A DNA stretch of 64,000 nt from positions 48,044 through 112,043 of the forward strand of contig CAMDUL010000004.1 of assembly GCA_945878135.1 (NCBI GenBank), in the 5' to 3' direction. Origin of the DNA: Chthoniobacter flavus (lineage in GTDB: Bacteria > Verrucomicrobiota > Verrucomicrobiia > Chthoniobacterales > JACTMZ01). Both the position numbers and the translations under genes were made by a program. Below the pieces are notes generated by a model that saw only the letters and a list, made by a program, of their open reading frames with translations, was not told where the DNA came from and did not search any database. This document shows, piece after piece, positions 688 through 25,616 of the stretch. Every line of letters starts with the position of its first letter. Positions within the stretch are counted from its first letter, which is position 1.

Positions 688-2229
688 ATGTCCGAAGAAG
701 CCCCGACGCTGGATCTCAGCGCCCTCGACTTCCGCCCGGCGTGGGCCAAGGACCCGTCGTCTGCCCCGTCCGCCCCGCGCGAATTCCGCGAGCCGCGCCC
801 GGAAAAACGCGACGGCTTCCCGCGCGGCAACAAATTCGAGGGCAAGCCCGGCGGCCCGCGCCGCGGCGGACCCAAACCGCACGGCAAGAAGTTCGACGGA
901 CCGCGCCGCGAGGACAACCGCCCGCCGCCCCCCCCGCCCAATCCCTTCCCGTGGCTGCGCATCGCCTTCACCGCCACCGCGCCCGCCGTGGAGACCGTTG
1001 TCGCGCAAGTGCGTCATACCGGAAAGACCTTCAGCCTCTTCGACATCGCCCGCATCCTCCTGCGCAATCCCGCGTCCTACACCATCGACCTCACCTCGGC
1101 ACCCAAGCAACCGGAAGGTCCGTTCTGGGTGGTCGACGCCGACCGCAGCGTGTGGTTGCAGCGCGAAGCCGCGGTGCGCCATCTCCTGCGCAAGAAGCGC
1201 GACGAATTCTACCGGGCCGAAACTGTCGAAACCGAACCGCCCAAAGGCAACTTCCCCGTCGTCGCGGTCTGCGGCATGTCTGGCGTCCTGCTCGGACCGC
1301 CCAATCACCATGACTTCGAACGCAAACTCCGCGATCTCCACCGCGAACGCTTCGCCCGCCTCGACTTCGAAACCTTCCGCAGCCGCCTCAAAATGGAACG
1401 CGATCCGGAAGTCATCGAAAAATGGCGCGCCGAAGCTTCCAAGACGATCGAGTATTTCCCGCTCGCCGGCGAGAATCCCGAAAAGCTGTCCGACCTGGCT
1501 GCGGTCGAACGCCATTTTGCCGAGAACCACGCGCCCGCGCATCTCAAGTTCGCCGATCTGGCCGCCGTTCCCGGCGACCCGAAGACAACCGCCGTCGACC
1601 CCGCCCTGGCGCCCCTGCTCAACCACGCCCGTGATGAAGAGGAACGTTTCCCGTTGCGCCTCGCCCAAAGCCTGAGCCGCGCTCTCAGCGCCGCCGGCCT
1701 GCGTTTCTACAAGAGCCCGAACCGCACCACCTTCGTCTCCGCCGCGCGACCCCGTCACCTCAACCTCGACGAGATCCCGGTAAGCGAAAGCATCAAAAAA
1801 ATCCTCGAACTCATCCGCGCCAGGAAATCCATCCGCCGGCCGCAACTGCTCGATCTCCTCGCGCCGGCCGCTGCCGAGGCGCCCCCTGTAGCGGCGCCGT
1901 CCCCGGCGCCGATTGTTGCCCCCGATCCCATCCCGTCCGCTGAGCCGGCAACGGCGCCAACGAATCCCGAGGTTTCCAACTCGGTGCCGGCTGTTCCCGT
2001 CAATCCCGCCCGCGAAGCCGTGGTCAACGACCTCCTCTGGCTGACCCATGAGGGCTATGTCATAGAATTCGCCGACGGTCGCCTGGAGTCCGTCCCGCCC
2101 CCGAAAAATCCCCCCAAGCCGGAGACTGCCGCCGCCCCGATTTCAACAGAAGGCAACGAAGGCCACGAAGGGAAAGAGCAGGCCGGGCCGGACGCCGAGG
2201 CTCCAACGGACGCTGCACCGGAAGGATAA
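688..2229 (+). CDS. hypothetical protein with Arg/Gly/Pro/Lys-rich low-complexity N-terminus
   Basis: 513-aa ORF starting 33 nt after ilvB. N-terminal ~95 aa read GKPGGPRRGGPKPHGKKFDGPRREDNRPPPPPP, followed by a globular-looking region and a Pro/Ala-rich tail. No family recognised by eye. The antisense 486-aa ORF is judged a GC artefact. Confidence 0.6.
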   Translation: MSEEAPTLDLSALDFRPAWAKDPSSAPSAPREFREPRPEKRDGFPRGNKFEGKPGGPRRGGPKPHGKKFDGPRREDNRPPPPPPNPFPWLRIAFTATAPAVETVVAQVRHTGKTFSLFDIARILLRNPASYTIDLTSAPKQPEGPFWVVDADRSVWLQREAAVRHLLRKKRDEFYRAETVETEPPKGNFPVVAVCGMSGVLLGPPNHHDFERKLRDLHRERFARLDFETFRSRLKMERDPEVIEKWRAEASKTIEYFPLAGENPEKLSDLAAVERHFAENHAPAHLKFADLAAVPGDPKTTAVDPALAPLLNHARDEEERFPLRLAQSLSRALSAAGLRFYKSPNRTTFVSAARPRHLNLDEIPVSESIKKILELIRARKSIRRPQLLDLLAPAAAEAPPVAAPSPAPIVAPDPIPSAEPATAPTNPEVSNSVPAVPVNPAREAVVNDLLWLTHEGYVIEFADGRLESVPPPKNPPKPETAAAPISTEGNEGHEGKEQAGPDAEAPTDAAPEG

Positions 2230-2230
2230 G

Positions 2231-2332
2231 CGCACGCAAAGTCCGCCAAGGGCGCGGAGGGGGAACCGGTCGAGCGGCGAAGGTCGAAGGTCGAGGTTTC
2301 CGCACGTGGCGGCCTTGGCGGACGTGGCGTGA
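2231..2332. repeat. composite GC-rich repeat (words W2-W3-W1), copy 1
   Basis: GCAAAGTCCGCCAAGGGCGCGGAGGGG, then GGTCGAGCGGCGAAGGTCGAAGGTCGAGG, then CCGCACGTGGCGGCCTTGGCGGACGTGGCGTG. The same three words recur at 5335-5478. Confidence 0.8.
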
Positions 2333-2388
2333 CCGGGAAGAGGGTCGCGGCTTGGCTTTGATCCGCGGGAACGGCACTCTCTGGTTTG

Positions 2389-3141
2389 ATGGAATGGTGG
2401 CTCAAGTCGCTCCTGATGCGCTGGGGATTCGTCCTCAAGCGGCGGCGTCAGGTCATGATGCGGAAACCGGCCGGTGACCGGAGCCTTGACCCGGGGGACC
2501 TCATGGAAGCCATCCACGGGACCGATGTTTACCAGGGCTTTGATTTCGCCGCGCTTCCGTGCGACCTGCAGGGCTGGGGCGGTGATTCACCGGCCTTCGG
2601 CGAGTTGATCACAGCGGTGCGGCCGGCGCTGGTCATCGAGGTCGGAACTTGGAAAGGGGCCTCCGCCGTGTCCATGGCGGACGCGGCGGCGCGCGAGGGA
2701 TTATCCACGACGATTGTTTGTGTCGACACCTGGCTCGGCGCCTTGGAGTTCCGCACGGACCAGGCGGACGCCGAGCGTTTCCGCGCGTTGGAGTGCCGCC
2801 ATGGTTACCCGCAAGTCTACTACCGTTTTCTCGCCAACGTTTGTCATCGCGGCCACCAGCAACGCATCGTGCCCTTCCCGATGGACTCCGCTTCCGCCGC
2901 CCTCTGGTTCATGTCGCACGGGGTCAAGGCCGGGCTGATCTACATCGACGCCAGCCATGAGGAAGAGGCCGTCTACCAGGATCTGGTCGATTACCGTCAA
3001 TTGCTGGCGCCCGGCGGCCGGATCTTCGGCGACGACTGGGACTGGGCCGGCGTGCGCGCCGCAGTCACCACCTTCGCCAAGGCTTACGGACTGACCATCA
3101 CCCATTGCCACGACAAGTGGGTGCTAGCCGCTGCGGCATAA
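2389..3141 (+). CDS. class I SAM-dependent methyltransferase (Methyltransf_24 / CmcI-TylF-like)
   Basis: VIEVGTWKGASAVSMADAA...IVCVDTWLG...LIYIDASHEEEAVYQDLVDYRQLLAPGGRIFGDDWDW. ATG at 2389 chosen over the TTG at 2386; exact start uncertain. Confidence 0.75.
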   Translation: MEWWLKSLLMRWGFVLKRRRQVMMRKPAGDRSLDPGDLMEAIHGTDVYQGFDFAALPCDLQGWGGDSPAFGELITAVRPALVIEVGTWKGASAVSMADAAAREGLSTTIVCVDTWLGALEFRTDQADAERFRALECRHGYPQVYYRFLANVCHRGHQQRIVPFPMDSASAALWFMSHGVKAGLIYIDASHEEEAVYQDLVDYRQLLAPGGRIFGDDWDWAGVRAAVTTFAKAYGLTITHCHDKWVLAAAA

Positions 3142-3220
3142 TCCTCAGGGTTCCCCCCCGCCTACCTTGCTCCCTGCGGCCCCAGCCACGGCCCGCCCGT
3201 GGTTTCCTGCCCTGGGGCGC

Positions 3221-3252
3221 ACTGTTGGACAATTGGCAAATTGTCCAACAGT
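3221..3252. repeat. P element copy P1: perfect 32-bp palindrome (14-4-14), centre GGCA
   Basis: ACTGTTGGACAATT-GGCA-AATTGTCCAACAGT. Ends 15 nt upstream of the ArsR-family ATG. Exact reverse complement of P2 and P3. Confidence 0.95.
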
Positions 3253-3267
3253 GGCTATCGTCCCGTC

Positions 3268-3555
3268 ATGAGTGCATATGACCGCGGACGGGCGCGGATG
3301 ACCGCGTCTTTGGGCAATCATCGTCGGATCGAAATCATCCGTCTGTTGCGCAAACAGCCCCTGCAATGCGTCGATGAAATCGCCGCGGCTTGCAAGATCG
3401 ACAAATCCACCGCGAGCGAGCATCTGCGCCGCCTGCATGAGGGCGGCATGATCGGGAAGAAATACCGTGGACGTCGCGTTCTGCTCAGCGTGACCAAACG
3501 CGCCACCACCATGCTGCGCACGATCGACCTTTTGTGGGATGCTGCGGAAAGCTGA
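3268..3555 (+). CDS. ArsR/SmtB-family winged-helix transcriptional regulator
   Basis: LGNHRRIEIIRLLRKQPLQCVDEIAAACKIDKSTASEHLRRLHEGGMIGKKYRGRRVLLSV is the HTH_20 pattern. ATG at 3268 chosen because the upstream GTG (3199) extension is encoded by the palindrome. Confidence 0.85.
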   Translation: MSAYDRGRARMTASLGNHRRIEIIRLLRKQPLQCVDEIAAACKIDKSTASEHLRRLHEGGMIGKKYRGRRVLLSVTKRATTMLRTIDLLWDAAES

Positions 3556-3586
3556 CTGTTGGACAATTTGCCAATTGTCCAACAGT
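3555..3586. repeat. P element copy P2: perfect 32-bp palindrome, centre TGCC
   Basis: ACTGTTGGACAATT-TGCC-AATTGTCCAACAGT. Its first base is the last base of the ArsR stop codon. Confidence 0.95.
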
Positions 3587-3668
3587 GAGAGGGAAAGGGT
3601 GGGACCTCGCGTTTGCGGTATTGCCTATGGCGGTCACATGACACGAGGTCGTGCGCGCCGCGGTCATC
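3587..3668 (+). repeat. conserved right flank of the P element (copy at P2)
   Basis: Hand alignment with 5145-5227 gives about 67/83 identical positions without gaps. It ends in GTCGTGCGCGCCGCGGTCATC, which resembles the methyltransferase codons VRAAV. Confidence 0.8.
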
Positions 3669-3680
3669 AAAGGCCTGAAT

Positions 3681-3998
3681 TCAGGCGGCGGTGAGGACTT
3701 CGGGGTGGTGTTTGGCGATCTCGAGCAGCCGCAAGGCGGCACCCGAAGGTTGGCGTCGCCCTTTTTCCCAGCTGATAGCCGTGACGACAGGAACGTTGAG
3801 CACGGCTGCAAAAACCGGCTGGCTCATCTTCAACCGCGAACGCAAACGTTTGACTTCGCGGGGTCCGAAGGTCGGAGCGGGCTTCGGAAGCGTCGTCGTG
3901 CGCAGGGTGATTTTGCGCCGGCCGGTCACCGCATCGCGGACTTCCTCGACACTGCGGACCAGTTCGTCGGCATTGAAGGCGTGGGTTTTCTTTTTCAT
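3681..3998 (-). CDS. HTH (XRE-type) antitoxin, HigA-2/NadS-like
   Basis: LRSRLKMSQPVFAAVLNVPVVTAISWEKGRRQPSGAALRLLEIAKHHPEVL. Overlaps the upstream toxin gene by 4 nt. Confidence 0.8.
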   Translation of the reverse strand: MKKKTHAFNADELVRSVEEVRDAVTGRRKITLRTTTLPKPAPTFGPREVKRLRSRLKMSQPVFAAVLNVPVVTAISWEKGRRQPSGAALRLLEIAKHHPEVLTAA

Positions 3999-4327
3999 TT
4001 GTTGTGGTGTTTTTTGATTTCATCAACGGCCGCACGCAGTCGCTTTTTCTGGTCCGGCGCGAGGTCGGCAATGTCGCCTTTGGTGTAAGCTTGGAAGAGG
4101 TAGATGAGACCCGGCTGCAACAGCAGCAGGTAGATCACCCGCGCCCCTCCGCGCTTGCCCCGGCCTTTGGCCGACCAGCGCACTTTGCGCAGGCCACCGA
4201 GACCGGGAATGACGTCACCAGCTTCGGGCCGTGCGACGAGGAAATGCTGGAAGGCCGCATACTCGGCGTCCGTCCACAAGTCCGTGCATTGATCGGTGAA
4301 GGCTGGAGACTCAATGAAGGTCAACAT
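3995..4327 (-). CDS. RelE/HigB-2-like toxin
   Basis: FTDQCTDLWTDAEYAAFQHFLVARPEAGDVIPGLGGLRKVRWSAKGRGKRGGARVIYLL...QAYTKGDIADL is the typical HigB-2 pattern. Toxin-first operon with a 4-nt overlap. Confidence 0.8.
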   Translation of the reverse strand: MLTFIESPAFTDQCTDLWTDAEYAAFQHFLVARPEAGDVIPGLGGLRKVRWSAKGRGKRGGARVIYLLLLQPGLIYLFQAYTKGDIADLAPDQKKRLRAAVDEIKKHHNK

Positions 4328-4470
4328 GCACTATTACCATGTAATACCTTACTCGTGTGGCGCAAGGGGAAAAGTAATCCGGGCAGGGGCTGTTAGTGAG
4401 CGGGACGACCTCCCCGGCGTGCCGCGGCCGCCGGAGTGCCGGGTGGCTGGTAAAAAGTAACGGGTCGGCC

Positions 4471-4494
4471 GAAGAAGTATGCTGCGCACTTCGC
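4471..4494 (+). repeat. H-box hairpin repeat, degenerate copy
   Basis: GAAGAAGTATGCTGCGCACTTCGC followed by GGGCTGAAGAGG. Lies between the HigB-like start and the DUF2442 stop. Confidence 0.7.
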
Positions 4495-4513
4495 GGGCTG
4501 AAGAGGTCAAAAC

Positions 4514-4768
4514 TCAGGCGGCGGCGCAGGAGGCGGGATAGAGCCCGAACACGGCGTCGGCAATCCAAATGTCCTCGTCCAGTTCTTCCCAACGCAAGGC
4601 CCGGCCGCCGACGCGCAAGCTGACAGACGCCAACTGGTCGGGAGTGGCTTGGGCTAAGCGCGGGTAGAAGGCGACAGGAAAAGAATGAGTCGAGCCGTCC
4701 CGCAGTTTGAGAAAGATCTGCCTATCGTGGGCAGATGCCTCCAGTGCGATCATTTCGTGTTTAACCAT
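4514..4768 (-). CDS. DUF2442 domain protein
   Basis: MVKHEMIALEASAHDRQIFLKLRDGSTHSFPVAFYPRLAQATPDQLASVSLRVGGRALRWEELDEDIW. The ATG overlaps the TAA of the upstream DUF4160 reading frame (ATGGTTAA). Confidence 0.8.
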   Translation of the reverse strand: MVKHEMIALEASAHDRQIFLKLRDGSTHSFPVAFYPRLAQATPDQLASVSLRVGGRALRWEELDEDIWIADAVFGLYPASCAAA

Positions 4769-4993
4769 GGAACTTGCTCCAAGCGCTGAGAAAATCTTGC
4801 TTATTTTCTTCCACCAAGCCAGCGATTTTCGACAGTTCATGGTTGGCGAAGCCAAAGTTTTCGGCCAGCAGGACCGGGTCGAGCCGGAACTTCGCTTCGA
4901 GGTCATCGCAGGCGAGTGGATGTGCGGCGGTTCCCCGGGTTCACGCGAATAAAAATGGAACCGGTAGGGCCCCTTCCGAAAAAGGGTCGGCAT
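4761..4993 (-). pseudogene. DUF4160 gene with a frameshift
   Basis: MPTLFRKGPYRFHFYSREPGEPPHIH is in one frame. The expected continuation DLEAKFRLDPVLLAENFGFANHELSKIAGLVEENKQDFLSAWSKFHG-stop is in another frame. The span is 233 nt, not a multiple of 3. Confidence 0.75.
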
Positions 4994-5112
4994 TGCTGCA
5001 CGGTGGTGATCTGCTCCTGACGGGAGCAAGCAGGAAGGTATTAGGAGCTGGGGGTCACCTGGGCTGGCGGGTAGCCGCGGGCTGTGCGACGTGGCGCAGG
5101 TTCGGTGCTCTC

Positions 5113-5144
5113 ACTGTTGGACAATTTGCCAATTGTCCAACAGT
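5113..5144. repeat. P element copy P3: perfect 32-bp palindrome, centre TGCC
   Basis: Identical to P2 over all 32 nt. Lies between the divergent DUF4160 pseudogene and the GT2 gene. Confidence 0.95.
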
Positions 5145-5227
5145 CAGCGGGAGTGGGTGAGACCTCCCATTTTCGGTGTTGTCTATGGCCGTCCCATGAC
5201 GCGAGGTCGTGCGCGCCGTGGTTTTCA
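5145..5227 (+). repeat. conserved right flank of the P element (copy at P3)
   Basis: About 80 % identical to 3587-3668 by hand alignment. Runs directly into the methyltransferase-tail remnant. Confidence 0.8.
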
Positions 5228-5298
5228 TCTTCGCCAAGGCTTACGGACTGAGCATCACGCATTGCCACGACAAGTGGGTGCTCTCCCCCGCAATCTGA
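5168..5298 (+). pseudogene. remnant of the 3' end of a methyltransferase gene (paralogue or older allele of 2389-3141)
   Basis: 5230-5298 reads FAKAYGLSITHCHDKWVLSPAI-stop against native FAKAYGLTITHCHDKWVLAAAA-stop (3073-3141). 52 of the first 54 nt are identical. Upstream, IFG (native RIFGDDW) is recognisable in a shifted frame, and an in-frame TGA lies at 5197. Confidence 0.8.
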
Positions 5299-5334
5299 CC
5301 GGCTGACCGCAGCCATTCTACGCCCGAGAGGGTT

Positions 5335-5478
5335 CCGCACGTGGCGGGCTTGGCGGACGTTGCGTGGCACGCGGAGTTCGCCAAGGGCGCGGAGGGGAGG
5401 AAGGGACGGAGTCGAGTGGCGAAGGTCGAGAGTCGAGGGCTGCGCACGTTGCGGCCTTTGCGGACGTTGCGTGCGCGG
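5335..5478. repeat. composite GC-rich repeat (W1-W2-W3-W1), copy 2
   Basis: CCGCACGTGGCGGGCTTGGCGGACGTTGCGTG, then GCGGAGTTCGCCAAGGGCGCGGAGGGG, then GAGTCGAGTGGCGAAGGTCGAGAGTCGAGGG, then GCGCACGTTGCGGCCTTTGCGGACGTTGCGTGCGC. Confidence 0.8.
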
Positions 5479-5530
5479 AAGCCGCAAGTTGCGGGGTGCG
5501 TTTGCTGCCTCGGCGTGTTAGGAACCTCTT

Positions 5531-6529
5531 GTGAAATTCACGGTAGTCACGCCCAGTTTCGGTCAACTCGACTGGCTGGAGCTTTGTCTCGCCAGTGTTC
5601 GGGATCAGGTCGCGCACGCGGCGACGCAGGGAGCAGGCAGCATGGAGCAGGGAGCAGAGATTCCAGAGAGGCAGAAGGAGGAGCGGACCGGTGAAGTATG
5701 CTCCGCACTTCACGGGCTGAAGGTGTCGGGTGAAAGGGGGGCGGCTAGGTTGCTAACGGTCGAGCACATTGTTTGCGATGGCGGCTCCCCGGGGATCGAG
5801 GACTTCAAGCAGCGCATGCTTGAGCGGTTTCCGGAAAGCCCGACCTACCGTCTTGAGTTTGTCATCGGTCCGGATGCAGGCATGTATGACGCAATCAACA
5901 AAGGTCTGCGCCGGGCCGACGGGGAAGTTTGCTCCTACCTCAATTGCGATGAACAACTGCTGCCGGGGTCGCTGGCGGCGGTCAGGGATTATTTTGCCAA
6001 ACATGCGGACACTGATGTGATCTTCGGCGACACGATCGTGGTTGGGCGGGAAGGTGAGCCGCTTTGCTATTGGCGTCCGTATGTGCCCTCGCTCGCCCAT
6101 CTGGCCGGTGCGACTTTGAACACCCTCTCCTGCAGCACCTTTTTCCGCCGCAGAGTGGTCGAGGCCGGCCACCTCTTCGAGCCGCAATGGAAAGCGGTGG
6201 GGGACTTGCGCTGGATCCGCGGGCTCTTGGAAAAGCGCCGTCCCATGGCATGCCTGCCGCGGCCGCTGGGGGCTTTCACCTTTCTCGGCGACAATCTCGG
6301 GGCGGGGGCAAAGGCGCGCGAGGAATTCGAGGCGTCACGCGAGTCCTCCTCCGGTCCCGGGCGCTGGTTCCGCCGCGGTTGGCATGGGGTCCGCAAGCTC
6401 TTCTCCGGGGCCTATGTCCGCCGCAAAGTGACCTACGACCTTTTTGCCTTGTCTGATCCGTCGAGGCGGCGACGCTTCACTTGCGACAGCCTCGGCTGGA
6501 CCTGGCCCGGCCTGACGAAATCCCCATGA
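5531..6529 (+). CDS. glycosyltransferase family 2 (carries an in-frame repeat insertion)
   Basis: GTG start. MKFTVVTPSFGQLDWLELCLASVRDQ ... EHIVCDGGSPG ... DAINKGLRRADGEVCSYLNCDEQL is the GT2 pattern. The stop overlaps the next ATG (ATGA). Confidence 0.8.
   Translation: MKFTVVTPSFGQLDWLELCLASVRDQVAHAATQGAGSMEQGAEIPERQKEERTGEVCSALHGLKVSGERGAARLLTVEHIVCDGGSPGIEDFKQRMLERFPESPTYRLEFVIGPDAGMYDAINKGLRRADGEVCSYLNCDEQLLPGSLAAVRDYFAKHADTDVIFGDTIVVGREGEPLCYWRPYVPSLAHLAGATLNTLSCSTFFRRRVVEAGHLFEPQWKAVGDLRWIRGLLEKRRPMACLPRPLGAFTFLGDNLGAGAKAREEFEASRESSSGPGRWFRRGWHGVRKLFSGAYVRRKVTYDLFALSDPSRRRRFTCDSLGWTWPGLTKSP
5615..5750 (+). repeat. H-box mosaic segment inside the GT2 coding sequence (approximate limits)
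   Basis: H-box core at 5691-5713 (GTGAAGTATGCTCCGCACTTCAC, 22/23 to consensus) followed by GGGCTGAAGG. Translated in frame as TGEVCSALHGLKV, between the conserved VRDQ and EHIVCDGGS motifs. Confidence 0.75.
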
Positions 6530-7308
6530 TTCCCGAGCAGGATAACCAAAGCGATCCCTTCTATGTGGAGGTCCTGCGGGCGGCGCTGCGCGACGGCGCC
6601 CTGCGGGCTGAAGATCGTGTTCTCGTCGTTTGCGGCGGCGTCAAAGATGAAGCATCTTTGCGCGAAGCTGGTCTTCGGAATTTCGAGCTATCGAACATCG
6701 GTGGCGAAATGGAAGTTGATGTCGAAAATCTGTCTTATGCCGAGGGCTCCTTCGATGCCGTCATCGTGCATTCCGGATTGCACCACTGCGCGTCGCCCCA
6801 CCGCGGCTTGCTCGAGATGTATCGGGTGGCTAAGCGGTGCATCATTCTTTTCGAGCCGGCGGACAATCTGGTTACCCGGTTAGGTCAGAAGCTCGGTATC
6901 GGTCAGACCTACGAATTTGCCGCCGTGCAGTGCAACCGTCTAGAGTGCGGGGGCTGGCGCAACACCTCGGCGCCGAACTGGGTCTACCGCTTCAACGCGT
7001 CTGAAATCCGGCAGACGATCAATTGCGCGGCGCCGTTCGGTCCGCACCGCTTCCGGTTCCATTACCGCACCCGTGTTCCGTGGCGCCAATTGCGCGTGCG
7101 GCGCAACAAGCTTCCGCTCGTCATGGCGATGCTTGCCGCGCCCGTGTTGCGTGTATTTGACGCCGTCGGCCCCGTGGCCAGCAATAACATGGCGGCGGTG
7201 ATCGTGAAGCCGGATCTCACCGCAGAAAAATTTCCTTGGCTGGAGAAGTCTGGTTCACAGTGGATAGCGGACCGCGGCTGGTTCCGCGGGAAATTCGGGC
7301 CCTCTTGA
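6526..7308 (+). CDS. class I SAM-dependent methyltransferase (Methyltransf_11-like)
   Basis: DRVLVVCGGVKDEASL...NLSYAEGSFDAVIVHSGLHHCASPHRGLLEMYRVAKRCIILFEP. ATG at 6526 overlaps the GT2 stop. Confidence 0.75.
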   Translation: MIPEQDNQSDPFYVEVLRAALRDGALRAEDRVLVVCGGVKDEASLREAGLRNFELSNIGGEMEVDVENLSYAEGSFDAVIVHSGLHHCASPHRGLLEMYRVAKRCIILFEPADNLVTRLGQKLGIGQTYEFAAVQCNRLECGGWRNTSAPNWVYRFNASEIRQTINCAAPFGPHRFRFHYRTRVPWRQLRVRRNKLPLVMAMLAAPVLRVFDAVGPVASNNMAAVIVKPDLTAEKFPWLEKSGSQWIADRGWFRGKFGPS

Positions 7309-7468
7309 CTTGAAGTGCGGGTTGCAAGCGGTCCAAAGGTACGCTGTTCGTGTCGGATCGTTCCTGCTGATGCGCAACCTTTCCGTCCCGCGAAGCGATG
7401 GTGCGTTCAGGGCGAGAAACGGAAACACCGGGCGTTGAGGCCCGGTGTGGCGTGGTTGCGGCGATCTG

Positions 7469-7500
7469 ACGGTTGGAGAATATGCCAACTGTCTAACAGT
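7469..7500. repeat. P element copy P4, degenerate (5 mismatches in 32)
   Basis: ACGGTTGGAGAATATGCCAACTGTCTAACAGT, centre TGCC. Sits at the left GC transition. Confidence 0.7.
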
Positions 7501-7972
7501 GCGCTCCGTTTAGGGCGTCAGGTGGTACGCAATTGGTATTCGGGTTGAGAACGAAGCCATTAGACGGTTTCATCGACGCTCTTTTGGCGGAAGTTTTAAA
7601 GTGCCATGGAGGGTTACGGAGGTGTCTTGGTATCCGACATCATAATGCTCTGAATGTGCAAGATCCAACGTGGCTGTATTGCAGCCAGTTTTGTAAGGTG
7701 ACCACCAGACGACTTGGTTGCTCACGGCAGGCAGCTTGCAATACTGGGACCGCGTCAACATGGGTTAGAACATTAACTGCACTCCAACTGAGATGTGCCT
7801 CAGGATTCTTTCTTAGGATGACATGCAGAGGCGGAAGTCGGATTGCGCATTAGTCGTATTTTCAGCCGAATATTCTGTTGATGGTTACTTAAGCAATAGT
7901 AGCATAGAAACGCAAAACTTGCAGCTACTTGTTGCTTTGGAGATAAGTTCCATATTCATTAATTTGTCATTT

Positions 7973-8611
7973 ATGCCATTCCGGCCGGAAAACCTGATTC
8001 GCGCCAACCGGGACCAAGTAGCTTCCGAGAAAGATAGCTTTACTATCGAGAGGTATCGACAGTTTGCCAAATACCTGCAGCAAACGACACAACGCATCTT
8101 GGATATCGGGGGCGGGGTAGGCGAGGGAGGACGTGAATTGAAGCGACTTCAGCCTGGCCTATCGCTGGTGGGCTTAGACTGCGTTCCCGAGCGGGTCGAG
8201 GCGATGGATTCGGTTGTTTATGCAGAGAGAGTGTGCGCTTTTGCCGACAATCTTCCGTTCCCTGATGGCTCTTTCGATGCGATCGTCGCCGGGGAATTTA
8301 TCGAGCATGTTCCAGGAGCGTCGGTTGATGCTACCCTCCACGAGTTTTTCCGTGTTCTGCGATTGAGGGGCACTTTGCTGCTCACAACCCCAAACCCTTA
8401 CTACTTAAGAAATAAGCTACAAGGACTTAGTGTGATTAAGGATCCGGCCCACGTCAGTCAACATTATCCCGAAACTCTGGAACTTAGGCTCAAGATGGCT
8501 GGTTTCTCCCACATTTGGATCAAAGGCTCGGGAAAGGTGACGCGCTATCTGGGTGAGATTTGGCCGCTCAGGATTTACGGCAGTTTTTTGTGCTCGGCTT
8601 TGAAATGGTGA
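7973..8611 (+). CDS. class I SAM-dependent methyltransferase (Methyltransf_11-like)
   Basis: RILDIGGGVGEGGRELKRL...FADNLPFPDGSFDAIVAGEFIEHVPGASVDATLHEFFRVLRLRGTLLLTTPN. ATG at 7973 chosen from the longer ORF. Confidence 0.8.
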   Translation: MPFRPENLIRANRDQVASEKDSFTIERYRQFAKYLQQTTQRILDIGGGVGEGGRELKRLQPGLSLVGLDCVPERVEAMDSVVYAERVCAFADNLPFPDGSFDAIVAGEFIEHVPGASVDATLHEFFRVLRLRGTLLLTTPNPYYLRNKLQGLSVIKDPAHVSQHYPETLELRLKMAGFSHIWIKGSGKVTRYLGEIWPLRIYGSFLCSALKW

Positions 8612-8820
8612 CGATTGGGAAAATCTCGTCTTGCCGTTGTCTCAACAAATAAAGATCGATTTAACACAGTCAGTGACTCAACGGAAAATGAACCTTCAAA
8701 ATATCTCAGTCAACCAAATTGCGATCAGCGCTTCTCTTTTCCTTGGTTCGCTGCTGGCGGCGGAGTTGCGAACTGAAGGAGAGTCAGGAACCGCGAACCT
8801 AGGTGCATTATTGCGTTGTC

Positions 8821-8852
8821 ACTGCTCGACAGTTTGCCAATAGCCCAACAGT
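8821..8852. repeat. P element copy P5, degenerate (5 mismatches in 32)
   Basis: ACTGCTCGACAGTTTGCCAATAGCCCAACAGT, centre TGCC. Lies between the convergent methyltransferase and epimerase genes. Confidence 0.7.
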
Positions 8853-8871
8853 GCACCGGAGGGCACGGGAG

Positions 8872-9855
8872 TCAGGTTGCGGTTTCGTACTCGGACTGGG
8901 TTCGAAGCCAGATGATGGTTTCGTCTATGCCTTGTTGGAGGGAGAACTTGGGTTGTCCTAGGAGGGCAAAGGTTTTGTCCATGGGGGTCACGTAGTTGGT
9001 GACCATGCTACGGTAGCGGGAGGAAGTGATGTAGAACGGCCTCCCGGTCAGAGCTGTGATAAGGTCGCCGACGAGGCTGGCGGTGCGAAGGATGGGACGC
9101 GGGACTTTGCGGGCGGATTGGCCGCGGAGAGCACGGCAGAAGGCGTCGGCCCAGTGGTAGATGTCAGAGGCGGGATCGCCCACATAGAAAGTTTGGCGGT
9201 CGACTTTTTCCGCAGGCTCCTCGAGTAGGGCAACCATTTGGTCGGCCACATTACCCACATACCCGTAGCACCGCACGACCGGTTTGCCACCGGGATGCAC
9301 GTAGAGACCCTTTCGCGCAATGCGCCAGAATTCCTGCGGGTAGCGTGGATGCCAAGGACCCCAGATGTTGGTCGGCCGGACCATGACCCACTCGCAGTCA
9401 AGACCGGCCCGACGGGTTTCCTGCTCGGTGATGACCTTGCTTTTTCCGTAGACGGTGGCGGGAAAGTAGTCCTCATCGTGGGCAGGGAGGCGTCCGGGCC
9501 CGCAAACAAATTGCGACGAGCACATGAGCAGACGCCGGACCGATGGGGTGGCTTGGACGGCGGCGAGGAAATTGCGCGTGCCCTGCGTATTGGCGCGAAA
9601 TCCCGTCTCGGCGGATGTCTTCTCGTCCATTTCGGTCCGCGCGGCGAGATGCATGACTTGGTCCGGGCCGAAAGCCGTCATGGTTTCCCGTAGCAAACCG
9701 GCGTCGAGAATATCCACCTCCCTCCAGAACGGCCGGTGTGCCGCCTCGTGCGGGGCTTGGTTGGAGACGTTCATGACCTCGTGGCCTTTGGTAAGCAACC
9801 GACTGACTACATGAGTCCCGATGAAGCCGGAACCACCAGTAATAAGAATTTTCAT
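8872..9855 (-). CDS. NAD-dependent epimerase/dehydratase (extended SDR)
   Basis: MKILITGGSGFIGTHVVSRLL is a Rossmann motif; YGKSK matches the catalytic YxxxK. Confidence 0.85.
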   Translation of the reverse strand: MKILITGGSGFIGTHVVSRLLTKGHEVMNVSNQAPHEAAHRPFWREVDILDAGLLRETMTAFGPDQVMHLAARTEMDEKTSAETGFRANTQGTRNFLAAVQATPSVRRLLMCSSQFVCGPGRLPAHDEDYFPATVYGKSKVITEQETRRAGLDCEWVMVRPTNIWGPWHPRYPQEFWRIARKGLYVHPGGKPVVRCYGYVGNVADQMVALLEEPAEKVDRQTFYVGDPASDIYHWADAFCRALRGQSARKVPRPILRTASLVGDLITALTGRPFYITSSRYRSMVTNYVTPMDKTFALLGQPKFSLQQGIDETIIWLRTQSEYETAT

Positions 9856-9922
9856 GAAGGCACTTTGAATGTATCAAGATGTCTGGTCTCTGAGTTGGCA
9901 TTTTGCAATTGTCAGAGTTCTC

Positions 9923-11056
9923 ATGTCACGAGCAGCGAAGCCAATAGTTGTGATCGCCGGGCAGAAGCCTCCTCCCACTGGAGGGCAAAATCTGATGATT
10001 GCCAGCCTCCTCGATGATCTACGCGGAGACCCTCGCTGGTTGACGGAACATCTTGAGTTTCGCTTCACGTCAACTTTCTCAACGGTTCGCCGAGCAAACT
10101 TGGCAAAAGTCTGGGAACTGCTGAAGGTTTACGGCCGACTGGCGCGCATCGTCTTTCGGTATAGGCGCGTAGATCTGGTGATTTATCCGAGTGGCGGCCC
10201 GCAAACAGTGCCGTTAGTCCGGGATATTATGTTGTTGCCCTTCGTCCGAATCGCTACCAAGCGACTTTGGGTCCAATTTCATGCAGCAGGCATTGCGAAT
10301 CGTCTCAAGGAACGGAAGGGAATATTAGAGGCTCTCCTAAAGCTCGTGTATCGTTCCGTCGATGGAGCGATTGTGATGACCGAGTTTAATCGTTGTGATC
10401 CAGAGTTGTTGGGAGTCAAGGATGTTGAGGTGATTCCGCACCGCCTGAAAGATGAAAACCCCCAAGGAGAGCTGCCCGACTATTCCAAACGGCCTCTGCG
10501 AATCCTTCATGCTGGCCATCTTTGCAGCCTCAAGGGCACGCCGCAACTCTTGGAGGCCTTTGGTCAGTTGGCCCACCAATTTCCGGATTGGCATCTTGTA
10601 CTAATGGGAGAATTCTTGCCGCCCTACAGCGAAAAAGAGTGCCTTGAACGGTGTCGCGAACTTGGAATACAGAAAAGGGTGGAGATCACGGGAGTTCTAC
10701 GGGGCACCGAAAAGGCATCGCATTTCGCCACAGCCCATCTGTTCGTTTTCGCCTCAGTAGCACCTTACGAGTCATTTGGTCTGGTTATGGCTGAGGCAAT
10801 GATGTGGGGATTACCCGTATTGGCGTCAAACTGGCGGGGCAATCATGATGTAGCCGGTGACAGCGCAGTCTATTTTGAGGTTGATTTAGAAATAGAATCA
10901 AAATTGGCTGAAAAACTGCAGATTCTCCTTGAACGCCCTCGGGCTTTGCGGTCTATCGCCAAGGAGTCGCGGAGACGATATGTTTCGGAATTTTGCAGGG
11001 ATCCCGAAGATATTAATTTTGTCTCACGCTTAATTGCGTCTCCCTCGAAACCGTAA
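9923..11056 (+). CDS. glycosyltransferase family 4 (GT-B fold)
   Basis: HLFVFASVAPYESFGLVMAEAMMWGLPVLASNWRGNHDV is the typical GT4 C-terminal motif. ATG at 9923. Confidence 0.8.
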   Translation: MSRAAKPIVVIAGQKPPPTGGQNLMIASLLDDLRGDPRWLTEHLEFRFTSTFSTVRRANLAKVWELLKVYGRLARIVFRYRRVDLVIYPSGGPQTVPLVRDIMLLPFVRIATKRLWVQFHAAGIANRLKERKGILEALLKLVYRSVDGAIVMTEFNRCDPELLGVKDVEVIPHRLKDENPQGELPDYSKRPLRILHAGHLCSLKGTPQLLEAFGQLAHQFPDWHLVLMGEFLPPYSEKECLERCRELGIQKRVEITGVLRGTEKASHFATAHLFVFASVAPYESFGLVMAEAMMWGLPVLASNWRGNHDVAGDSAVYFEVDLEIESKLAEKLQILLERPRALRSIAKESRRRYVSEFCRDPEDINFVSRLIASPSKP

Positions 11057-11381
11057 ATAGCCTCTGCACTTTCAAATGCTTCACGCGGCGCAGCCACTTG
11101 CTCGTCCATAGCGTGCTGCCTGTGAATTGATTCGGGTGATAGAAGAGCTTAGCGATCCGGAGCGCAGCTGAGCTCTCTTATGGGTGCTGCTACACCCAGC
11201 AGCAGAACCAACCCCAGCAACCTACCAAATTTCTCATAGAGCCCAGCCCAAAAAGCGGGGTCGGATCAGCAGCACGCCACACTGCCGGGGAGTTGATGAT
11301 ACGCTTCGTGAGTTAGTGCATATTGTTTGCGCCCTAGACTGGACGTGGTCCGAAACAGGCCCTAGTAGTAAACGGGCTCTC

Positions 11382-12962
11382 ATGAATTTTCACAATATAT
11401 CGGCCAACCAAATCATTGTGTGGTCTGCATTGCTACTCGGGTTACTTGCGGCTGTCATGATTGGAAGCGCCGTGGGTAGCTCCGATATGCGTTTAGCTGC
11501 GGGCGTCGTTGCTGCGATTCCTATCGCTGTCATTTTTGTCAAACTAAAAACAAACATATGGGTGCTGATACCCCTTAGTTGGTTTCTCACGGGACGTTTG
11601 CCGTGGCTACCTGTGCCATTCACCGTGCGCGATCTGTGCTTCATGGCGGTTATTTTCTTTTTTACGCTTTTCTTTGCTACACGCGTTTTACCTTGGAAGC
11701 GCAAATCAGAGATGTTGGATTACCTCATTTATATCAACCTCGCATATCTTGCATCGGTATACGCACGTAATCCGGCAGGTTTCTGGGCGCTCCAGACCGA
11801 GATCGTCGGAGGCCGTCCGTATTTCGAGATCGTCCTGGCATTCGGTGCGTTTGCCATTCTGAGTCGCGTGCACATCACAGATTTTATCGCAAAAATATTC
11901 CCATTATTTTTTGTCATTCCAGCGTGGTGTGTCGGCATTCTTGATGTCACTGCGCGCTTGGTGCCTCGGTTGTCCTATCCACTGTCCATGATGTACTCCG
12001 GTGTGGGGTCGAGCGGTGTGACGAGTGTCTTCCAACAAGAAGAGAGGCTAGGCGAGACTCGAATGACAGGACTACAAACTGCGGGTTGGAGTTCGGTTTT
12101 GGCGCTCTACTCGAAATACAATTCGCTTACGCTTATTTCACCTCTCTTTCCCTTTCGCATTATACTTTTTATTTTTGCGCTTGGCGCCATATTTCTTTCG
12201 GGATATCGGAGTATGATTCTTTTTGCCATGGTGGCTTACCTGCTATCGTCGCTTCTGCGCGGTAACTTAAAAGACTTGTGGGTTGCTGGGGCGGCGATGC
12301 TTTTAGGCTTAGTGATGCTCGTCTCCGTCCAAGGCAGCTTGATTCAGTTACCGAAAACTGCTCAGCGCGCTCTCTCTTGGCTGCCAGGTGATTGGGATCA
12401 AGAAGCAGTCGCTGAGGCTGAAGACTCATCAACTTGGCGATTTGAAATGTGGGAGTGGGCATGGAATGACGAACGCATTATACGCGACAAAACGTGGGGC
12501 ACCGGGTTTGGTTTATCGTTGGATGACATGAGCTTGATTGCGGCATCGTTTATGGCGGGTGGAGGTGGCGGGACCCTTCTTGGCGGTTCGGATCGGGAAA
12601 ACTTCATGATTACGGGCACTTTTCACAGTGGACCTCTCTCAACAATTAAATACATCGGAGTCGTCGGCTTGGCGCTTTACTATCCCTTGCTCTGCTACAT
12701 GGCCGTGCTCGCGTGGCGACTGTGCCGGCGTGCTCAAGGAACAAAAGCGTTCCCTTTGGCCCTCTTTGTGGGGATTCCCATTATCTACGAACCGTTTAAT
12801 TTTGTTATGGTGTTTGGAGCTTTGGAGCTTAGTTACGTGAAAACGCTGTTTTGGGCGGGGTTGCTCAATATGACGAACAGTTACCTCAATCGCTCGACGC
12901 CGCCGTCCCGTGGCGTAGAGGTGCTAAATACCGGCGAAGCGAATAAACTCGCTTACTCGTGA
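11382..12962 (+). CDS. wzy: O-antigen polymerase/ligase-family polytopic membrane protein
   Basis: Many predicted TM helices, a large loop after about TM9-10, and a polysaccharide locus context. ATG at 11382 (MNFHNISANQIIVWSALLLG). Confidence 0.6.
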   Translation: MNFHNISANQIIVWSALLLGLLAAVMIGSAVGSSDMRLAAGVVAAIPIAVIFVKLKTNIWVLIPLSWFLTGRLPWLPVPFTVRDLCFMAVIFFFTLFFATRVLPWKRKSEMLDYLIYINLAYLASVYARNPAGFWALQTEIVGGRPYFEIVLAFGAFAILSRVHITDFIAKIFPLFFVIPAWCVGILDVTARLVPRLSYPLSMMYSGVGSSGVTSVFQQEERLGETRMTGLQTAGWSSVLALYSKYNSLTLISPLFPFRIILFIFALGAIFLSGYRSMILFAMVAYLLSSLLRGNLKDLWVAGAAMLLGLVMLVSVQGSLIQLPKTAQRALSWLPGDWDQEAVAEAEDSSTWRFEMWEWAWNDERIIRDKTWGTGFGLSLDDMSLIAASFMAGGGGGTLLGGSDRENFMITGTFHSGPLSTIKYIGVVGLALYYPLLCYMAVLAWRLCRRAQGTKAFPLALFVGIPIIYEPFNFVMVFGALELSYVKTLFWAGLLNMTNSYLNRSTPPSRGVEVLNTGEANKLAYS

Positions 12963-12998
12963 AGGTCGCTAAATTTAGCTCGAACGGGCGCAGGTTTG

Positions 12999-14048
12999 CT
13001 ATTTTTCGAGCGCACTAGTTAGCCAACGAAGTGATCTCTCCGCATGCTCTCCGATGAGCTCATTGGCAGACACCCAGTCAATTTTCCGATCAAGCGCAAC
13101 GTCAAGGCGTGAAGCCTTGGCCACAAAGCGATTCGACAAGCCGAGTTGCTTAAGCCAGTGGCTGGTCTTGTTGAGCATGTCCTCAGTGGCCAAGCAAACG
13201 AAAGGTTTGTTTTCTCTTATAGCAAATAGGGTCCCATGAAAGGTAGCGCTTACAATGCAGGCAGCCTGCCGACAGGCGGCGGGCCAAGCAAGGGGGCCGA
13301 TATCAGCACGATTCATGTCGCACCAAGGTTGGTGGTAACCGACCGCGACTGTCCGCAGTCCTTTTTTCTTCGCACACTCGGCAATGGCCTTGGCGGCGGA
13401 GGGTTCGACAATCGGAGCGTAAATGAGCATGTCGGAAGGTCCGATACCTCGGCAAGGCGCGCCGAGCCCTCGTGCGGTCGGCAGCCACGTTGGGTCAACC
13501 ACGTTCACTGCATCCACTGCGCAGATGTTTTGAAGCCAGTCTCGTGATGACTCGTCACGGACAGAAAGGTGATCGAAATGACGGATACCATTTATAATAT
13601 TTTGCGTGGGTTTGTAGTCCAGCCTCATACTACCAATGCTCGGTGCGTATGCGATACGCTTTCCCGTGAAAGAACGCGCAAACACGCCGGCGTAAACAGG
13701 GTCGCTGCCGAGACGCGCGTTCTGAAAGTTCCACACGACGTCACTACCAACGACAATCGCATCATAGTGTTGAGTGGGAATGCTGGAACTGGAGTGAAAG
13801 CGCTTGGAACGAGCCAGCAATTTTCGGTCCTCGCGAAATGCTAAGCGCTTGACTACATCAAACAACAACCGCCGCGGACGCCGGTAGATCCAAGGTCGAA
13901 ATCGCTCAGAATTCCTTAATCGCGGATGGGTATAGTCGATCACCTCGGCTTGGTGGCCACACTGTCTGATGCTGGCCAGCAGACTTGCAGCTTGTAGAAA
14001 CGCGCCGTGGTTGGGCCCGGCGTGGAAGGTAAGAACTCCGATACGCAT
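12999..14048 (-). CDS. polysaccharide pyruvyl transferase family protein
   Basis: MRIGVLTFHAGPNHGAFLQAASLLASIRQCGHQAEVIDY ... IVVGSDVVWNF is the PS_pyruv_trans pattern. A TTG at 14057 is an alternative start. Confidence 0.75.
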   Translation of the reverse strand: MRIGVLTFHAGPNHGAFLQAASLLASIRQCGHQAEVIDYTHPRLRNSERFRPWIYRRPRRLLFDVVKRLAFREDRKLLARSKRFHSSSSIPTQHYDAIVVGSDVVWNFQNARLGSDPVYAGVFARSFTGKRIAYAPSIGSMRLDYKPTQNIINGIRHFDHLSVRDESSRDWLQNICAVDAVNVVDPTWLPTARGLGAPCRGIGPSDMLIYAPIVEPSAAKAIAECAKKKGLRTVAVGYHQPWCDMNRADIGPLAWPAACRQAACIVSATFHGTLFAIRENKPFVCLATEDMLNKTSHWLKQLGLSNRFVAKASRLDVALDRKIDWVSANELIGEHAERSLRWLTSALEK

Positions 14049-14058
14049 ACGCGTCAAT

Positions 14059-15141
14059 TCAGGGATTCAGGCTTATGGTGTTGGAGCCGGCGCGGGCGAT
14101 CAATCTGGACAAGCGCAAAAGCATATTCCCAAACAAAGTTTTGCGGGGTGACATCATATCGGGCCGCCTTGGTATAACGATCTTGAGGAGGGAGGCTAAA
14201 TGCTCAGCGATAACCCACTGTCCCTCAGCGCTCGGATAATTTCCCTGCTCCATGTAAGAGCTTGGGTTTGTCATGAGTAAACTGTGTATATCAACCAATT
14301 TGATGTGAGTTCCGCGCAGGCGCTGGCTGAGTGCCTTGTTCCATTCCGAGACATGAGCCTCCAGTGACTTCACCGGAGGCAGATTTGCGATCCACACATC
14401 CCGTGCACCAGCGCCCTCCAGCACGGTCAAAAGTTTGTCAACATTTCGCAGGAGAGATTCGATTCCGTGGCCTTCGATCAGGTCGTCTGTTCCCATCGCG
14501 ACAATCACGTTGGTATTTCGTATTCGTGGAGCAAGTCTCACCGCTAATGTGAGCACTCGTCTGCTGTTGGCCGCGGCAACACAAGCGTTCAGATAGCGGA
14601 GAGTTGTTCCGAATAGCAACTCCGGCCAACTGACAAAGTGCCGATTAGGCCACCGATTGTTGCTGAAGCCGTCACCAAGCACTATCCACTCAAGATCTTG
14701 CTTAGGGCGATGGGCGATCTCAATACTAGGCCTTGAGAGCCGGCTTCGTCCGGCCACCCCGAAGCCCCATTCTCCCTCCGCATTGCCATCATGAAGCACA
14801 CTAATTAAACCATAGCCGGAAGAACTGACTGATAGAAAGTCCGCATCTTGAAGAATCTCGAGGGCCGCATTCTCCGGAAGTCGTACCAGAACATGGTTGA
14901 GGTACACCGGTATACCGTCCTTGATGTGATAAACGGCAATAAGTCCGCGTTGCCGGCATACTTTGACCAGAAAATGGCAGCCAACGCCTTGAAAACCAAA
15001 AACAAAGTGACCGGCGTTCCGGTCCAGTAGCGGCAAGTGATATGTAACTTGGCAATCGCGGGCGCTTTCCGTGCCGAGCAAAACATAGCCGGGACCGAGA
15101 ATTTGTCCGTGATAGTGAGTTGCGCCTTTAATTAGCTTCAT
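14059..15141 (-). CDS. SGNH/GDSL-type hydrolase-fold protein with an unknown N-terminal domain
   Basis: C-terminal half reads WIVLGDGFSNN...VIVAMGTDDLIEGHG...WIANLPP...KLVDIHSLL. N-terminal about 150 aa unassigned. Confidence 0.5.
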   Translation of the reverse strand: MKLIKGATHYHGQILGPGYVLLGTESARDCQVTYHLPLLDRNAGHFVFGFQGVGCHFLVKVCRQRGLIAVYHIKDGIPVYLNHVLVRLPENAALEILQDADFLSVSSSGYGLISVLHDGNAEGEWGFGVAGRSRLSRPSIEIAHRPKQDLEWIVLGDGFSNNRWPNRHFVSWPELLFGTTLRYLNACVAAANSRRVLTLAVRLAPRIRNTNVIVAMGTDDLIEGHGIESLLRNVDKLLTVLEGAGARDVWIANLPPVKSLEAHVSEWNKALSQRLRGTHIKLVDIHSLLMTNPSSYMEQGNYPSAEGQWVIAEHLASLLKIVIPRRPDMMSPRKTLFGNMLLRLSRLIARAGSNTISLNP

Positions 15142-15168
15142 AAATCCGTTACCTATCCTTATTAGAAG

Positions 15169-16653: not shown

Positions 16654-16740
16654 GAATTAATTGCAGCGAGGCGTTGGTCCTCGGCACGAAAAAGGTCAGG
16701 TGTTCGTTTGCTGAACACAAGATACCAATCGGACGGAGGG

Positions 16741-17850: not shown

Positions 17851-17867
17851 CGTAAGCCACGCGCCGC

Positions 17868-19903: not shown

Positions 19904-19936
19904 TGGTTATAAACAATATGTAGCAATCAAGCCTGC

Positions 19937-20290: not shown

Positions 20291-20295
20291 GACAC

Positions 20296-21051: not shown

Positions 21052-21165
21052 GAATTAATGCCAATTAGTATGTAAACGCTTTGCTGTTTATTTTAGACGG
21101 CTTTTACCGTGTCAGCTAAAGCAAGCTATACTCTGCAATATTGCGTGGCAATTCCAAAACACTGA

Positions 21166-22086: not shown

Positions 22087-22127
22087 CGTGACGAGATTTC
22101 CGGGAACGCTGGGACGTGTTCCAGCAC

Positions 22128-25614: not shown

Positions 25615-25616
25615 GC

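Follow-up and report, generated by a model that had tools for sequence, protein, structure and literature searches.

In the 64,000-nucleotide stretch of Chthoniobacter flavus DNA analysed here (assembly GCA_945878135.1, contig CAMDUL010000004.1, positions 48,044 to 112,043; the whole stretch is called the window below), a small gene for an ArsR/SmtB-fold protein, here called the regulator, is enclosed by two perfect 32-bp palindromes, P1 and P2. We consider it reasonably likely that this palindrome is the cognate operator of the 95-amino-acid protein encoded between its two copies. A preliminary description of the locus had offered an operator and a recombination site as alternative readings. 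Comparison among related loci supports the former: each lineage of the regulator has its own flanking pair, and the upstream copy has a -35 hexamer at its centre with a -10 hexamer at a fixed spacing.

P1 has the sequence ACTGTTGGACAATT-GGCA-AATTGTCCAACAGT, that is, 14-nt arms around a 4-nt centre with 0 mismatches. P2 has the same arms around the centre TGCC, also with 0 mismatches, and a third copy, P3, is identical to P2 with 0 mismatches. The chance expectation for a palindrome match was 0.00 in 100 dinucleotide-preserving shuffles. That P1 and P2 are perfect 14-4-14 palindromes and exact reverse complements of each other, asymmetric centre included, had been claimed before and was confirmed in the sequence and by a pattern search; the repeat arms 3220-3252 and 3555-3587 are 100% complementary over 33 nt. 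Only 2 of the 4 centre bases break the symmetry, and the arms are perfectly symmetric. Fifteen nucleotides separate P1 from the ATG of the regulator gene, and P2 overlaps the TGA stop codon (3553-3555) by one base, its own first and the codon's last. The tight enclosure of a 288-nt ArsR/SmtB-family gene, as described earlier, was thus found as well (open reading frame (ORF) 3268-3555; Pfam HTH_5). Further copies had been listed at 5113, 7469 and 8821. The first of these, P3, is perfect, and the other two, P4 and P5, proved degenerate with 5 arm mismatches each. All five copies lie within 5.6 kb by the regulator gene, and none was found in the other 58 kb of the window. The features are collected in Table 1.

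Table 1. Features around the regulator gene (positions in the window; TA, toxin-antitoxin)
Feature	Position	Strand	Remarks
Methyltransf_24 / CmcI-like methyltransferase gene	2386-3141	+	Pfam PF13578; reference for regulator orientation
P1	3221-3252	.	perfect palindrome, centre GGCA; putative operator overlapping regulator promoter
Sigma-70-like promoter	3233-3261	+	promoter scan; -35 TTGGCA 3233-3238 (P1 centre), 17-nt spacer, -10 TATCGT 3256-3261
Regulator gene, ArsR/SmtB-fold winged helix	3268-3555	+	288 nt, 95 aa; Pfam HTH_5 and structure matches
P2	3555-3586	.	perfect palindrome, centre TGCC; putative downstream operator and 3' RNA hairpin
Tail repeat after P2	3587-3669	+	recurs after P3 at 5145-5227; 3552-3669 versus 5110-5227, 86%
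TA cassette	3681-4327	-	MqsA/HigA-like antitoxin 3681-3998, RelE/HigB-like toxin 3995-4327; Pfam, both below gathering score
D1 hairpin repeat copy	4469-4503	.	GTGAAGT-N9-ACTTCAC type, unrelated to the palindrome; between two cassettes
DUF2442 cassette	4514-5029	-	DUF4160-like N-terminus; Pfam; absent at this position in L036, L022, L003
P3	5113-5144	.	perfect palindrome, centre TGCC; tail repeat 5145-5227 adjoins
Duplicated Methyltransf_24 3' fragment	5208-5291	+	copy of 3051-3134 (84 nt), 86-89%; joined to P3 tail
P4, degenerate copy	7469-7500	-	5/28 arm mismatches, asymmetric; adjoins terminator-like GC hairpin and T-run 7448-7425
P5, degenerate copy	8821-8852	.	5/28 arm mismatches, asymmetric; between convergent methyltransferase 7823-8611 (+) and epimerase 8872-9855 (-)

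Contigs encoding regulator homologues were taken at decreasing identity to the window protein; L-numbers denote the fetched loci. In six lineages, 40-100% identical to the window protein, the gene was flanked by a palindrome pair wherever both flanks were readable (Table 2). Within a lineage the two flanking sites resembled each other, from one lineage to the next they differed, and a GAC-N12-GTC core was common to most of them. A palindrome that is identical within a genome and differs between genomes, with the core shared, fits the prediction for a cognate operator. An upstream site equivalent to P1 was present in every lineage of the regulator family. Downstream sites were found in all the other lineages and were not seen in the contig-limited loci L046 and L047/L048. 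They lay from the stop codon itself (window, L041 and L054) to 150 nt past it (L039), and within the next gene in L030. Relative to the gene, the downstream centre was TGCC in four lineages. The most divergent recognition helix (ATASVHAKRL, L030) goes with the most divergent site. The metagenome-assembled genome (MAG) GCA_040881795.1 has two paralogues, L003 and L046, each adjoining its own site type, and on the L005 contig a site of the window type coexists with a paralogue that has a different palindrome on both sides. Judged from these loci, the two-site bracket is an old trait of the regulator family.

Table 2. Palindromes flanking the regulator gene in six lineages
Lineage	Identity to window protein	Upstream site	Downstream site
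Window type	100%	ACTGTTGGACAATT-GGCA-AATTGTCCAACAGT	same arms, centre TGCC
L039, L041-43, L047/L048	71-74%	ACACATGGACATTT-GGCA-AAATGTCCATGTGT	same type, centre TGCC (none seen in L047/L048)
L054	65%	CTACAATT-GGCA-AATCATCG	CGACAATT-TGCC-AATTGTCA, begins within stop codon
L046, L044	60-61%	AATTCGACAATT-GGCA-AAAAATCGAATT type	same type, TGCC, in L044; none found in L046
L030, L040	53-56%	TATTGGATTTTCTGCAGAATAACCAATA (TTCTGCAGAA-centred)	CATGGTAATTCTGCAGAATTACCATG (TTCTGCAGAA-centred), within recG 5' end
L005 paralogue	40%	ATGATATTCTTAAGAATGTCAT (ATGAYATTCTTAAGAATRTCAT type)	TTATGATGACATTCTTAAGAATATCATCATAA (ATGAYATTCTTAAGAATRTCAT type)

The loci L030-L035 and L040 (53-56% identity) have a conserved order recJ - regulator - recG, which occurs in 97 blocks of the collection index. 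In these loci the regulator stop codon overlaps the recG start, and the second palindrome is inside the 5' end of recG. The ancestral role of the regulator family may be the control of recG.

The second line of evidence is the geometry of the promoter. The -35 hexamer predicted for the regulator gene is the centre of P1, and the ATG sits 6 nt past the predicted -10. A -10-like hexamer of the TAnnnT type follows the centre hexamer by 16-17 nt at 11 of 11 upstream sites (TATCGT, TATCCT, TATCTT, TATTAT, TATGGT, TAAAAC, TAAGGT, TATACT, TATAAG or TAGCGT), and the neighbouring bases vary. At these sites the ATG comes 6-7 nt after the hexamer, and L054 has the same geometry with the hexamer TATCAG. 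The upstream centre is nearly always GGCA in the direction of the gene because the palindrome centre supplies the -35 in the promoter. In the exceptional locus L052, the upstream centre is flipped and still gives TTGCCA, with TAAGGT at the right distance. The first ATG is supported as the start codon by the invariant N-terminal residues M1, G7 and A9. Since the ATG falls 6-7 nt past the -10 and the N-terminal residues are conserved, the regulator mRNA is probably leaderless.

The regulator matches Pfam HTH_5 (arsR family, PF01022) with E = 7.8e-12 and 45.3 bits against a cut-off of 22. In a PDB profile search with family members, the first matches were 2kko/3gw2, HlyU, CadC, SmtB and CzrA. An AlphaFold model of the monomer (29 homologues, pLDDT 88) has the elements H3-29, H35-41, H46-58, E62-67, E70-75 and H77-94, that is, the helices of the ArsR/SmtB fold with a recognition helix at 46-58, a beta-hairpin wing and a C-terminal helix. 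Its best Foldseek matches were 3gw2, SmtB, YgaV, CzrA, HlyU and NolR, and AspA (4rs8) was also among the closest folds, at TM 0.73-0.84. The alignments show the recognition-helix residues T48, A49, H52, R55 and L56 to be invariant across the family. No conserved metal or thiol sensor motif was found in the sequence or in alignments A2 and A3. A Cys cluster at alpha3N, a His/Asp/Glu site at alpha5 and the paired Cys of thiol sensors mark the sensor subgroups and not the superfamily as a whole. Helix 5 (TKRATTMLRTIDLLWDAAES) contains neither His nor Cys, a single Cys occurs in QCVDE without a CXC, and C34 and C42 are each lost in some members of the wider alignment A2. On sequence and model, the regulator is a predicted ArsR/SmtB-fold DNA binder without an evident ligand site.

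Taken together, the operator reading would work as follows. The P1 centre would supply the -35, the right arm of P1 would fill the spacer, and the -10 would come next. Transcription would begin at or within a few bases of the ATG and yield a leaderless mRNA. With a dimer on P1, both the -35 and the spacer would be occluded and RNA polymerase blocked, so that the gene would repress itself. P2 most likely would have at least one of three functions: it could be an auxiliary operator that binds cooperatively or loops the 334-bp unit, act as a roadblock to the convergent genes, or fold into a 14-bp hairpin where the mRNA has its 3' end. It is likely that copies of the P2 type serve both as DNA operators and as RNA hairpins.

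Several points weigh against this interpretation. The case for an operator is comparative throughout, and the search pattern itself accounts for part of the core conservation seen in the metagenome copies. Many of these copies are on contigs with no regulator gene in view. In the L049 array, the copy at 5169 has a symmetric double change within the conserved GACA (GGATAATT...AATTATCC), which fits maintenance of a hairpin better than the constraint on an operator. P4 and P5 have decayed in the window genome. The half-site spacing GAC-N12-GTC differs from the classic 12-2-12 geometry of ArsR/SmtB operators. In addition, reading of the sequence found no -10 at the right distance from P2 or P3 on either strand; promoters at these two copies were rejected for this reason, and simple promoter occlusion does not account for P2 and P3.

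The palindrome is rare. Its core was found in only two contigs among 185,579 GTDB species genomes scanned, both at the regulator locus, and in these two genomes all exact-core copies were within about 3.5 kb of the regulator gene. The core was also found in 26 metagenome stretches, 19 of which are true relatives with a GGCA/TGCC centre. Several of the metagenome copies without a regulator in view lie among small ORFs recognised by eye as PIN-like, MazF-like and DUF433-like. The preliminary description had held that a generic high-copy repetitive extragenic palindrome (REP) would speak against both of its readings; instead, the copies in the window and in the two GTDB genomes cluster by the regulator. 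The palindrome as part of a known mobile element was set aside. No plasmid match was found, and the sole viral hit was another palindrome: the L012/L053 contig (Ga0222713_10000430, an IMG/VR giant-virus MAG) carries two AT-rich palindromes, AGTTTTGGACAATT-TTAA-AATTGTCCAATTTT, with the same 20-nt core, 1168 nt apart. This TTAA-centred palindrome is probably unrelated to that of the window.

Most of the close regulator homologues were on contigs of 0.5-3.5 kb, and many palindrome contigs end about 100-400 nt from the palindrome. Whether through repeats or through strain variation, metagenome assemblies seem to be interrupted systematically at this locus; as a practical matter, contigs often stop at the palindrome.

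In the preliminary description, the further copies would define a small regulon over glycan-modification genes. This could not be upheld. P3 is 387 nt upstream of the start of the GT2 gene (a counterpart occupies the equivalent position in L003, L005 and L022), P4 and P5 are decayed, and P5 lies between convergent genes. The extra copies follow the junctions of TA cassettes rather than promoters. At the position orthologous to P4, L015 has a near-perfect copy.

Homology of L022, L003, L002 and L004 to the window stops at the outer edge of P2 (3586/3587), and the cargo between P2 and P3 is absent there. Strain L036, which is near-identical, carries the regulator unit twice, in copies 100% identical to each other and separated by another pair of small genes, and the tail repeat of the window is homologous to the leader before the second of these copies. 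In L002 the second copy is truncated, and an ATPase-like ORF sits between the copies. In L049, the bracketed regulator is followed by at least four TA-like cassettes, the first three of which are separated by palindrome copies. The core of the window TA cassette (3677-4392) is 94% identical to L049 7581-8296, and the DUF2442 cassette is 93% identical to L049 6599-7134, whereas the regulator backbone is only about 83% identical. Since the cassettes are thus better conserved between lineages than the regulator region, they seem to move. In the window lineage, DNA bearing the putative operator has been copied locally as whole regulator units, as palindrome plus tail, and as palindrome plus terminator.

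It is conceivable from this organization that the palindromes are core sites, of the lox, dif or attC kind, for a recombinase encoded elsewhere, that TA cassettes move at them, and that the ArsR-type protein is at most accessory. Palindrome copies separate TA cassettes in L049, L036 and the window, the cassettes occur in varying order and place, synteny breaks exactly at the P2 edge, and contigs frequently terminate at the palindrome. The geometry allows a 13-6-13 or 12-8-12 reading, in the manner of tyrosine-recombinase core sites (loxP, FRT or dif type) with two arms around an asymmetric spacer of 6-8 bp, and 22 of the 25 copies other than P1 have one centre polarity relative to the regulator. 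This polarity is explained more simply by the repeated unit, which exceeds the palindrome (flanks of 25-40 and 15-80 nt, up to about 280 nt) and is in direct orientation. The perfectly symmetric arms, with two asymmetric centre bases, may weigh against a recombinase core, and the change of the site with the winged-helix protein across six lineages speaks against it. The simple loci consist of the two bracket sites only and have no cassettes. The idea that the palindrome forms the cassette boundary was rejected, since cassette homology ends 70-400 nt short of the palindromes. Compared with the empty site of L036, the indel junctions of the DUF2442 cassette are at about 4535 and about 5075. They coincide with an imperfect short direct repeat (GGCGGGaTAGaGCC / GGCGGGTAGCC) instead of P3, which is about 40 nt from the nearer junction. 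As the preliminary description had remarked, no recombinase is visible in the window: no recombinase, integrase or transposase was found among its approximately 50 scanned ORFs, nor among the called genes of L036 and L049. On balance, a role as recombinase site is unlikely.

Some candidate likenesses and histories were dropped on the way. GTTGGAC/GTCCAAC fits the attC motifs GTTRRRY/RYYYAAC, but the order is wrong, the palindrome is perfect and there is no intI, so the fit was judged a coincidence. No likeness was seen to the proteobacterial or firmicute dif consensus. Insertion of the P2-P5 region into an ancestral regulator/epimerase pair was also abandoned, because the window epimerase had no tblastn match in the simpler loci.

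The palindrome could instead be a REP-like structural hairpin (a terminator, mRNA stabiliser or insulator) without a specific link to the ArsR-type protein, accumulated as an intergenic repeat. Every intact copy folds as a 14-bp hairpin, P2 abuts the stop codon, and arm changes at positions 2, 3, 4 and 10 are fully compensated. On the cassette-sense strand, a spacer leads from array copies to a GC hairpin with a T-run, which lies about 22 nt past some copies including P4; L049, L005, L002 and L003 show this order of palindrome, spacer and terminator too, and their hairpins carry compensatory changes. The spacers between cassettes also hold the unrelated D1 hairpin repeat, and an ArsR-type gene is absent from the second TA array of the window. 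Against a purely structural role, P1 is upstream of the likely transcription start and would not be in the regulator RNA. The palindrome itself is followed by purine-rich sequence and not by a T-run or U-tract, as a Rho-independent terminator would be, and an Rfam scan of 2200-9900 by E-value gave no RNA family match. The GAC-N12-GTC core and the GGCA centre are kept between lineages though the rest of the arms has changed, the two flanking copies match within and differ between lineages, and the copies cluster by the regulator, not genome-wide. Arm mismatches do not favour G·U: 13 are G·T, 8 are A·C and 19 are of other kinds. As a sign of strand-specific selection on an RNA hairpin, this count was uninformative and was given up. 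We regard a hairpin alone as improbable.

The D1 repeat (core GTGAAGT-N9-ACTTCAC) occurs 14 times, always in the same orientation. Within about 6 kb (23809-29759) are eleven of these copies, and others include that of Table 1 and one at 5688-5722. Between the copies at 23809-29759 lie a GT2 gene and small genes of the minus strand, among them DUF2442, PIN and Phd/YefM-like ones; these form the second TA array, beyond the glycan island described below. D1 copies also adjoin the palindrome in inter-cassette spacers of L049, L005, L028 and L052. A MarR_2/GbsR-like winged-helix gene (29006-29671, minus strand) is at the end of the D1 array and has D1 copies on both sides, at 54 nt (upstream) and 240 nt (downstream). 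As a parallel system of regulator and repeat it was given no weight, because D1 is so dense there; a homologue was absent from the fetched loci. The D1 copy at 5688-5722 is in frame within the GT2 ORF 5531-6529 (5680-5723; residues about 50-65). It falls in an insertion of about 45 aa that is present only in the window and L005 orthologues, and the inserted sequence differs between the two.

The 3' fragment of Methyltransf_24 is fused to the P3 tail at a GTGCGCGCC microhomology, and the same fragment is found in strain L036. Positions 5304-5478 hold two copies of the sequence upstream of the Methyltransf_24 gene (2232-2336; CCGCACGTGGCGG...GGCGGACGT motif). The fragments at 5208-5478 are relics of earlier duplication and deletion. 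The DUF2442 cassette of the window (4514-5029, minus strand) is one ORF of 171 aa with a DUF4160-like part and DUF2442. In L049 the two parts are overlapping genes, so a frameshift or a fusion may have affected the DUF4160 gene of the window.

The presence of gyrB, recA, mreBC and RNase E/G genes in the window indicates that the locus is chromosomal. It borders a low-GC island for glycan biosynthesis (about 7-24 kb), where the GC content is 0.48-0.56 versus 0.62-0.65 in the flanks. The island encodes a Wzy_C-like protein (called in L001), a MatE/Polysacc_synt flippase, several GT1/GT4 proteins and FkbM methyltransferases, a pyruvyl transferase and a GDSL acylhydrolase. This polysaccharide island (about 7000-24000) was probably acquired horizontally, and TA arrays are on both sides of it. 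To judge from the sequences, the identical palindrome copies at the joints of the TA array probably serve as homology patches for ordinary recombination or gene conversion without a dedicated recombinase, and microhomology events may add or remove cassettes. A more far-reaching proposal is that the winged-helix protein and its palindrome organize the cassette array, marking the repeats and recruiting host recombination or repair, like an integron without an integrase. We think this quite doubtful. If it were true, TA and other small cassettes would be gained, lost and shuffled beside variable glycan loci by this means.

The earlier suggestion that P1 and P2 bound a lox-like invertible segment, taken here as a phase-variable flip of the regulator gene, has in its favour the exact 33-nt inverted repeat with its asymmetric centre and the recurrence of upstream GGCA and downstream TGCC in four lineages. 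It is nevertheless very improbable indeed: the gene is in the same orientation relative to the collinear Methyltransf_24 gene (PF13578, 9.1e-17) in the window, L002, L003, L004 and L022, and likewise constant behind other genes in L049 and L052, so that no readable assembly has the inverted state; no invertase was found in the ORFs and called genes named above; the indel junction is off the palindrome; L004 and L052 have copies in direct centre orientation and have not lost the gene; and flipping would recreate an identical expressed unit, not an on/off switch, because the -35 is in the repeat and the -10 inside the segment.

Full-text searching of the literature found nothing describing this arrangement. 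What appears to be new, on the comparisons made here, is a putative ArsR/SmtB-type autorepressor whose operator is the promoter core, brackets the gene and became a local repeat at the joints of a TA array. The at least six matched pairs of protein and palindrome, at 40-100% identity, are a natural specificity series in a poorly studied phylum and could be used directly for mapping which residues read which bases. The locus may also be a minimal autoregulated gene, with the promoter core within the operator, probably a leaderless mRNA, and a second operator touching the stop codon. It further suggests how the site of a transcription factor becomes a local repeat that structures a strain-variable TA array by a horizontally acquired glycan locus.

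The ArsR/SmtB autorepressors (SmtB, CzrA, CadC, and the non-metal members HlyU, NolR and BigR/SqrR) share the fold and the Pfam family of the regulator. They are likewise small dimeric winged helix-turn-helix proteins with a palindrome over their own promoter, and this position of the palindrome implies negative autoregulation for the window regulator as well. However, the window regulator has no conserved metal or thiol sensor residues, stands alone and heads no resistance operon. Its site is a long perfect 14-4-14 palindrome with the -35 at the centre, has a second identical copy at the 3' end of the gene and is locally multiplied. Identical or related operators on both sides of a transcription unit, at a spacing of a few hundred bp, are also found in lac O1/O2, gal OE/OI and lambda OL/OR, and lambda OL/OR bracket the repressor gene cI itself, as P1 and P2 bracket the regulator. 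These looping systems need a tetramer or higher oligomer, none of which is indicated for the window regulator; the protein family is unrelated, and in the window the downstream site touches the stop codon.

REP/RAYT (REPIN) and IS200/IS605 elements likewise have a small gene between inverted palindrome copies and extra copies elsewhere in the genome. In the window, by contrast, the flanked gene encodes a winged helix-turn-helix protein without an HUH/Y1 domain, the copies are few and local, and no GTAG-type guide motif is evident. Integrons and the Xer-dependent pdif modules of Acinetobacter resemble the locus in their TA-rich small modules, recurring polar palindromic site and strain-variable content. 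They differ in that the window has no intI by the array, no extrahelical bases and no distinct XerC/XerD arms, its cassette boundaries are outside the site, and the site covaries with a winged-helix protein. AspA of the Sulfolobus plasmid pNOB8, a small ArsR-like winged-helix protein, is among the closest structural matches to the regulator and recognises a palindrome upstream of its own operon. AspA functions in plasmid partition with ParA and ParB partners, whereas the window locus is chromosomal and has no such partners.

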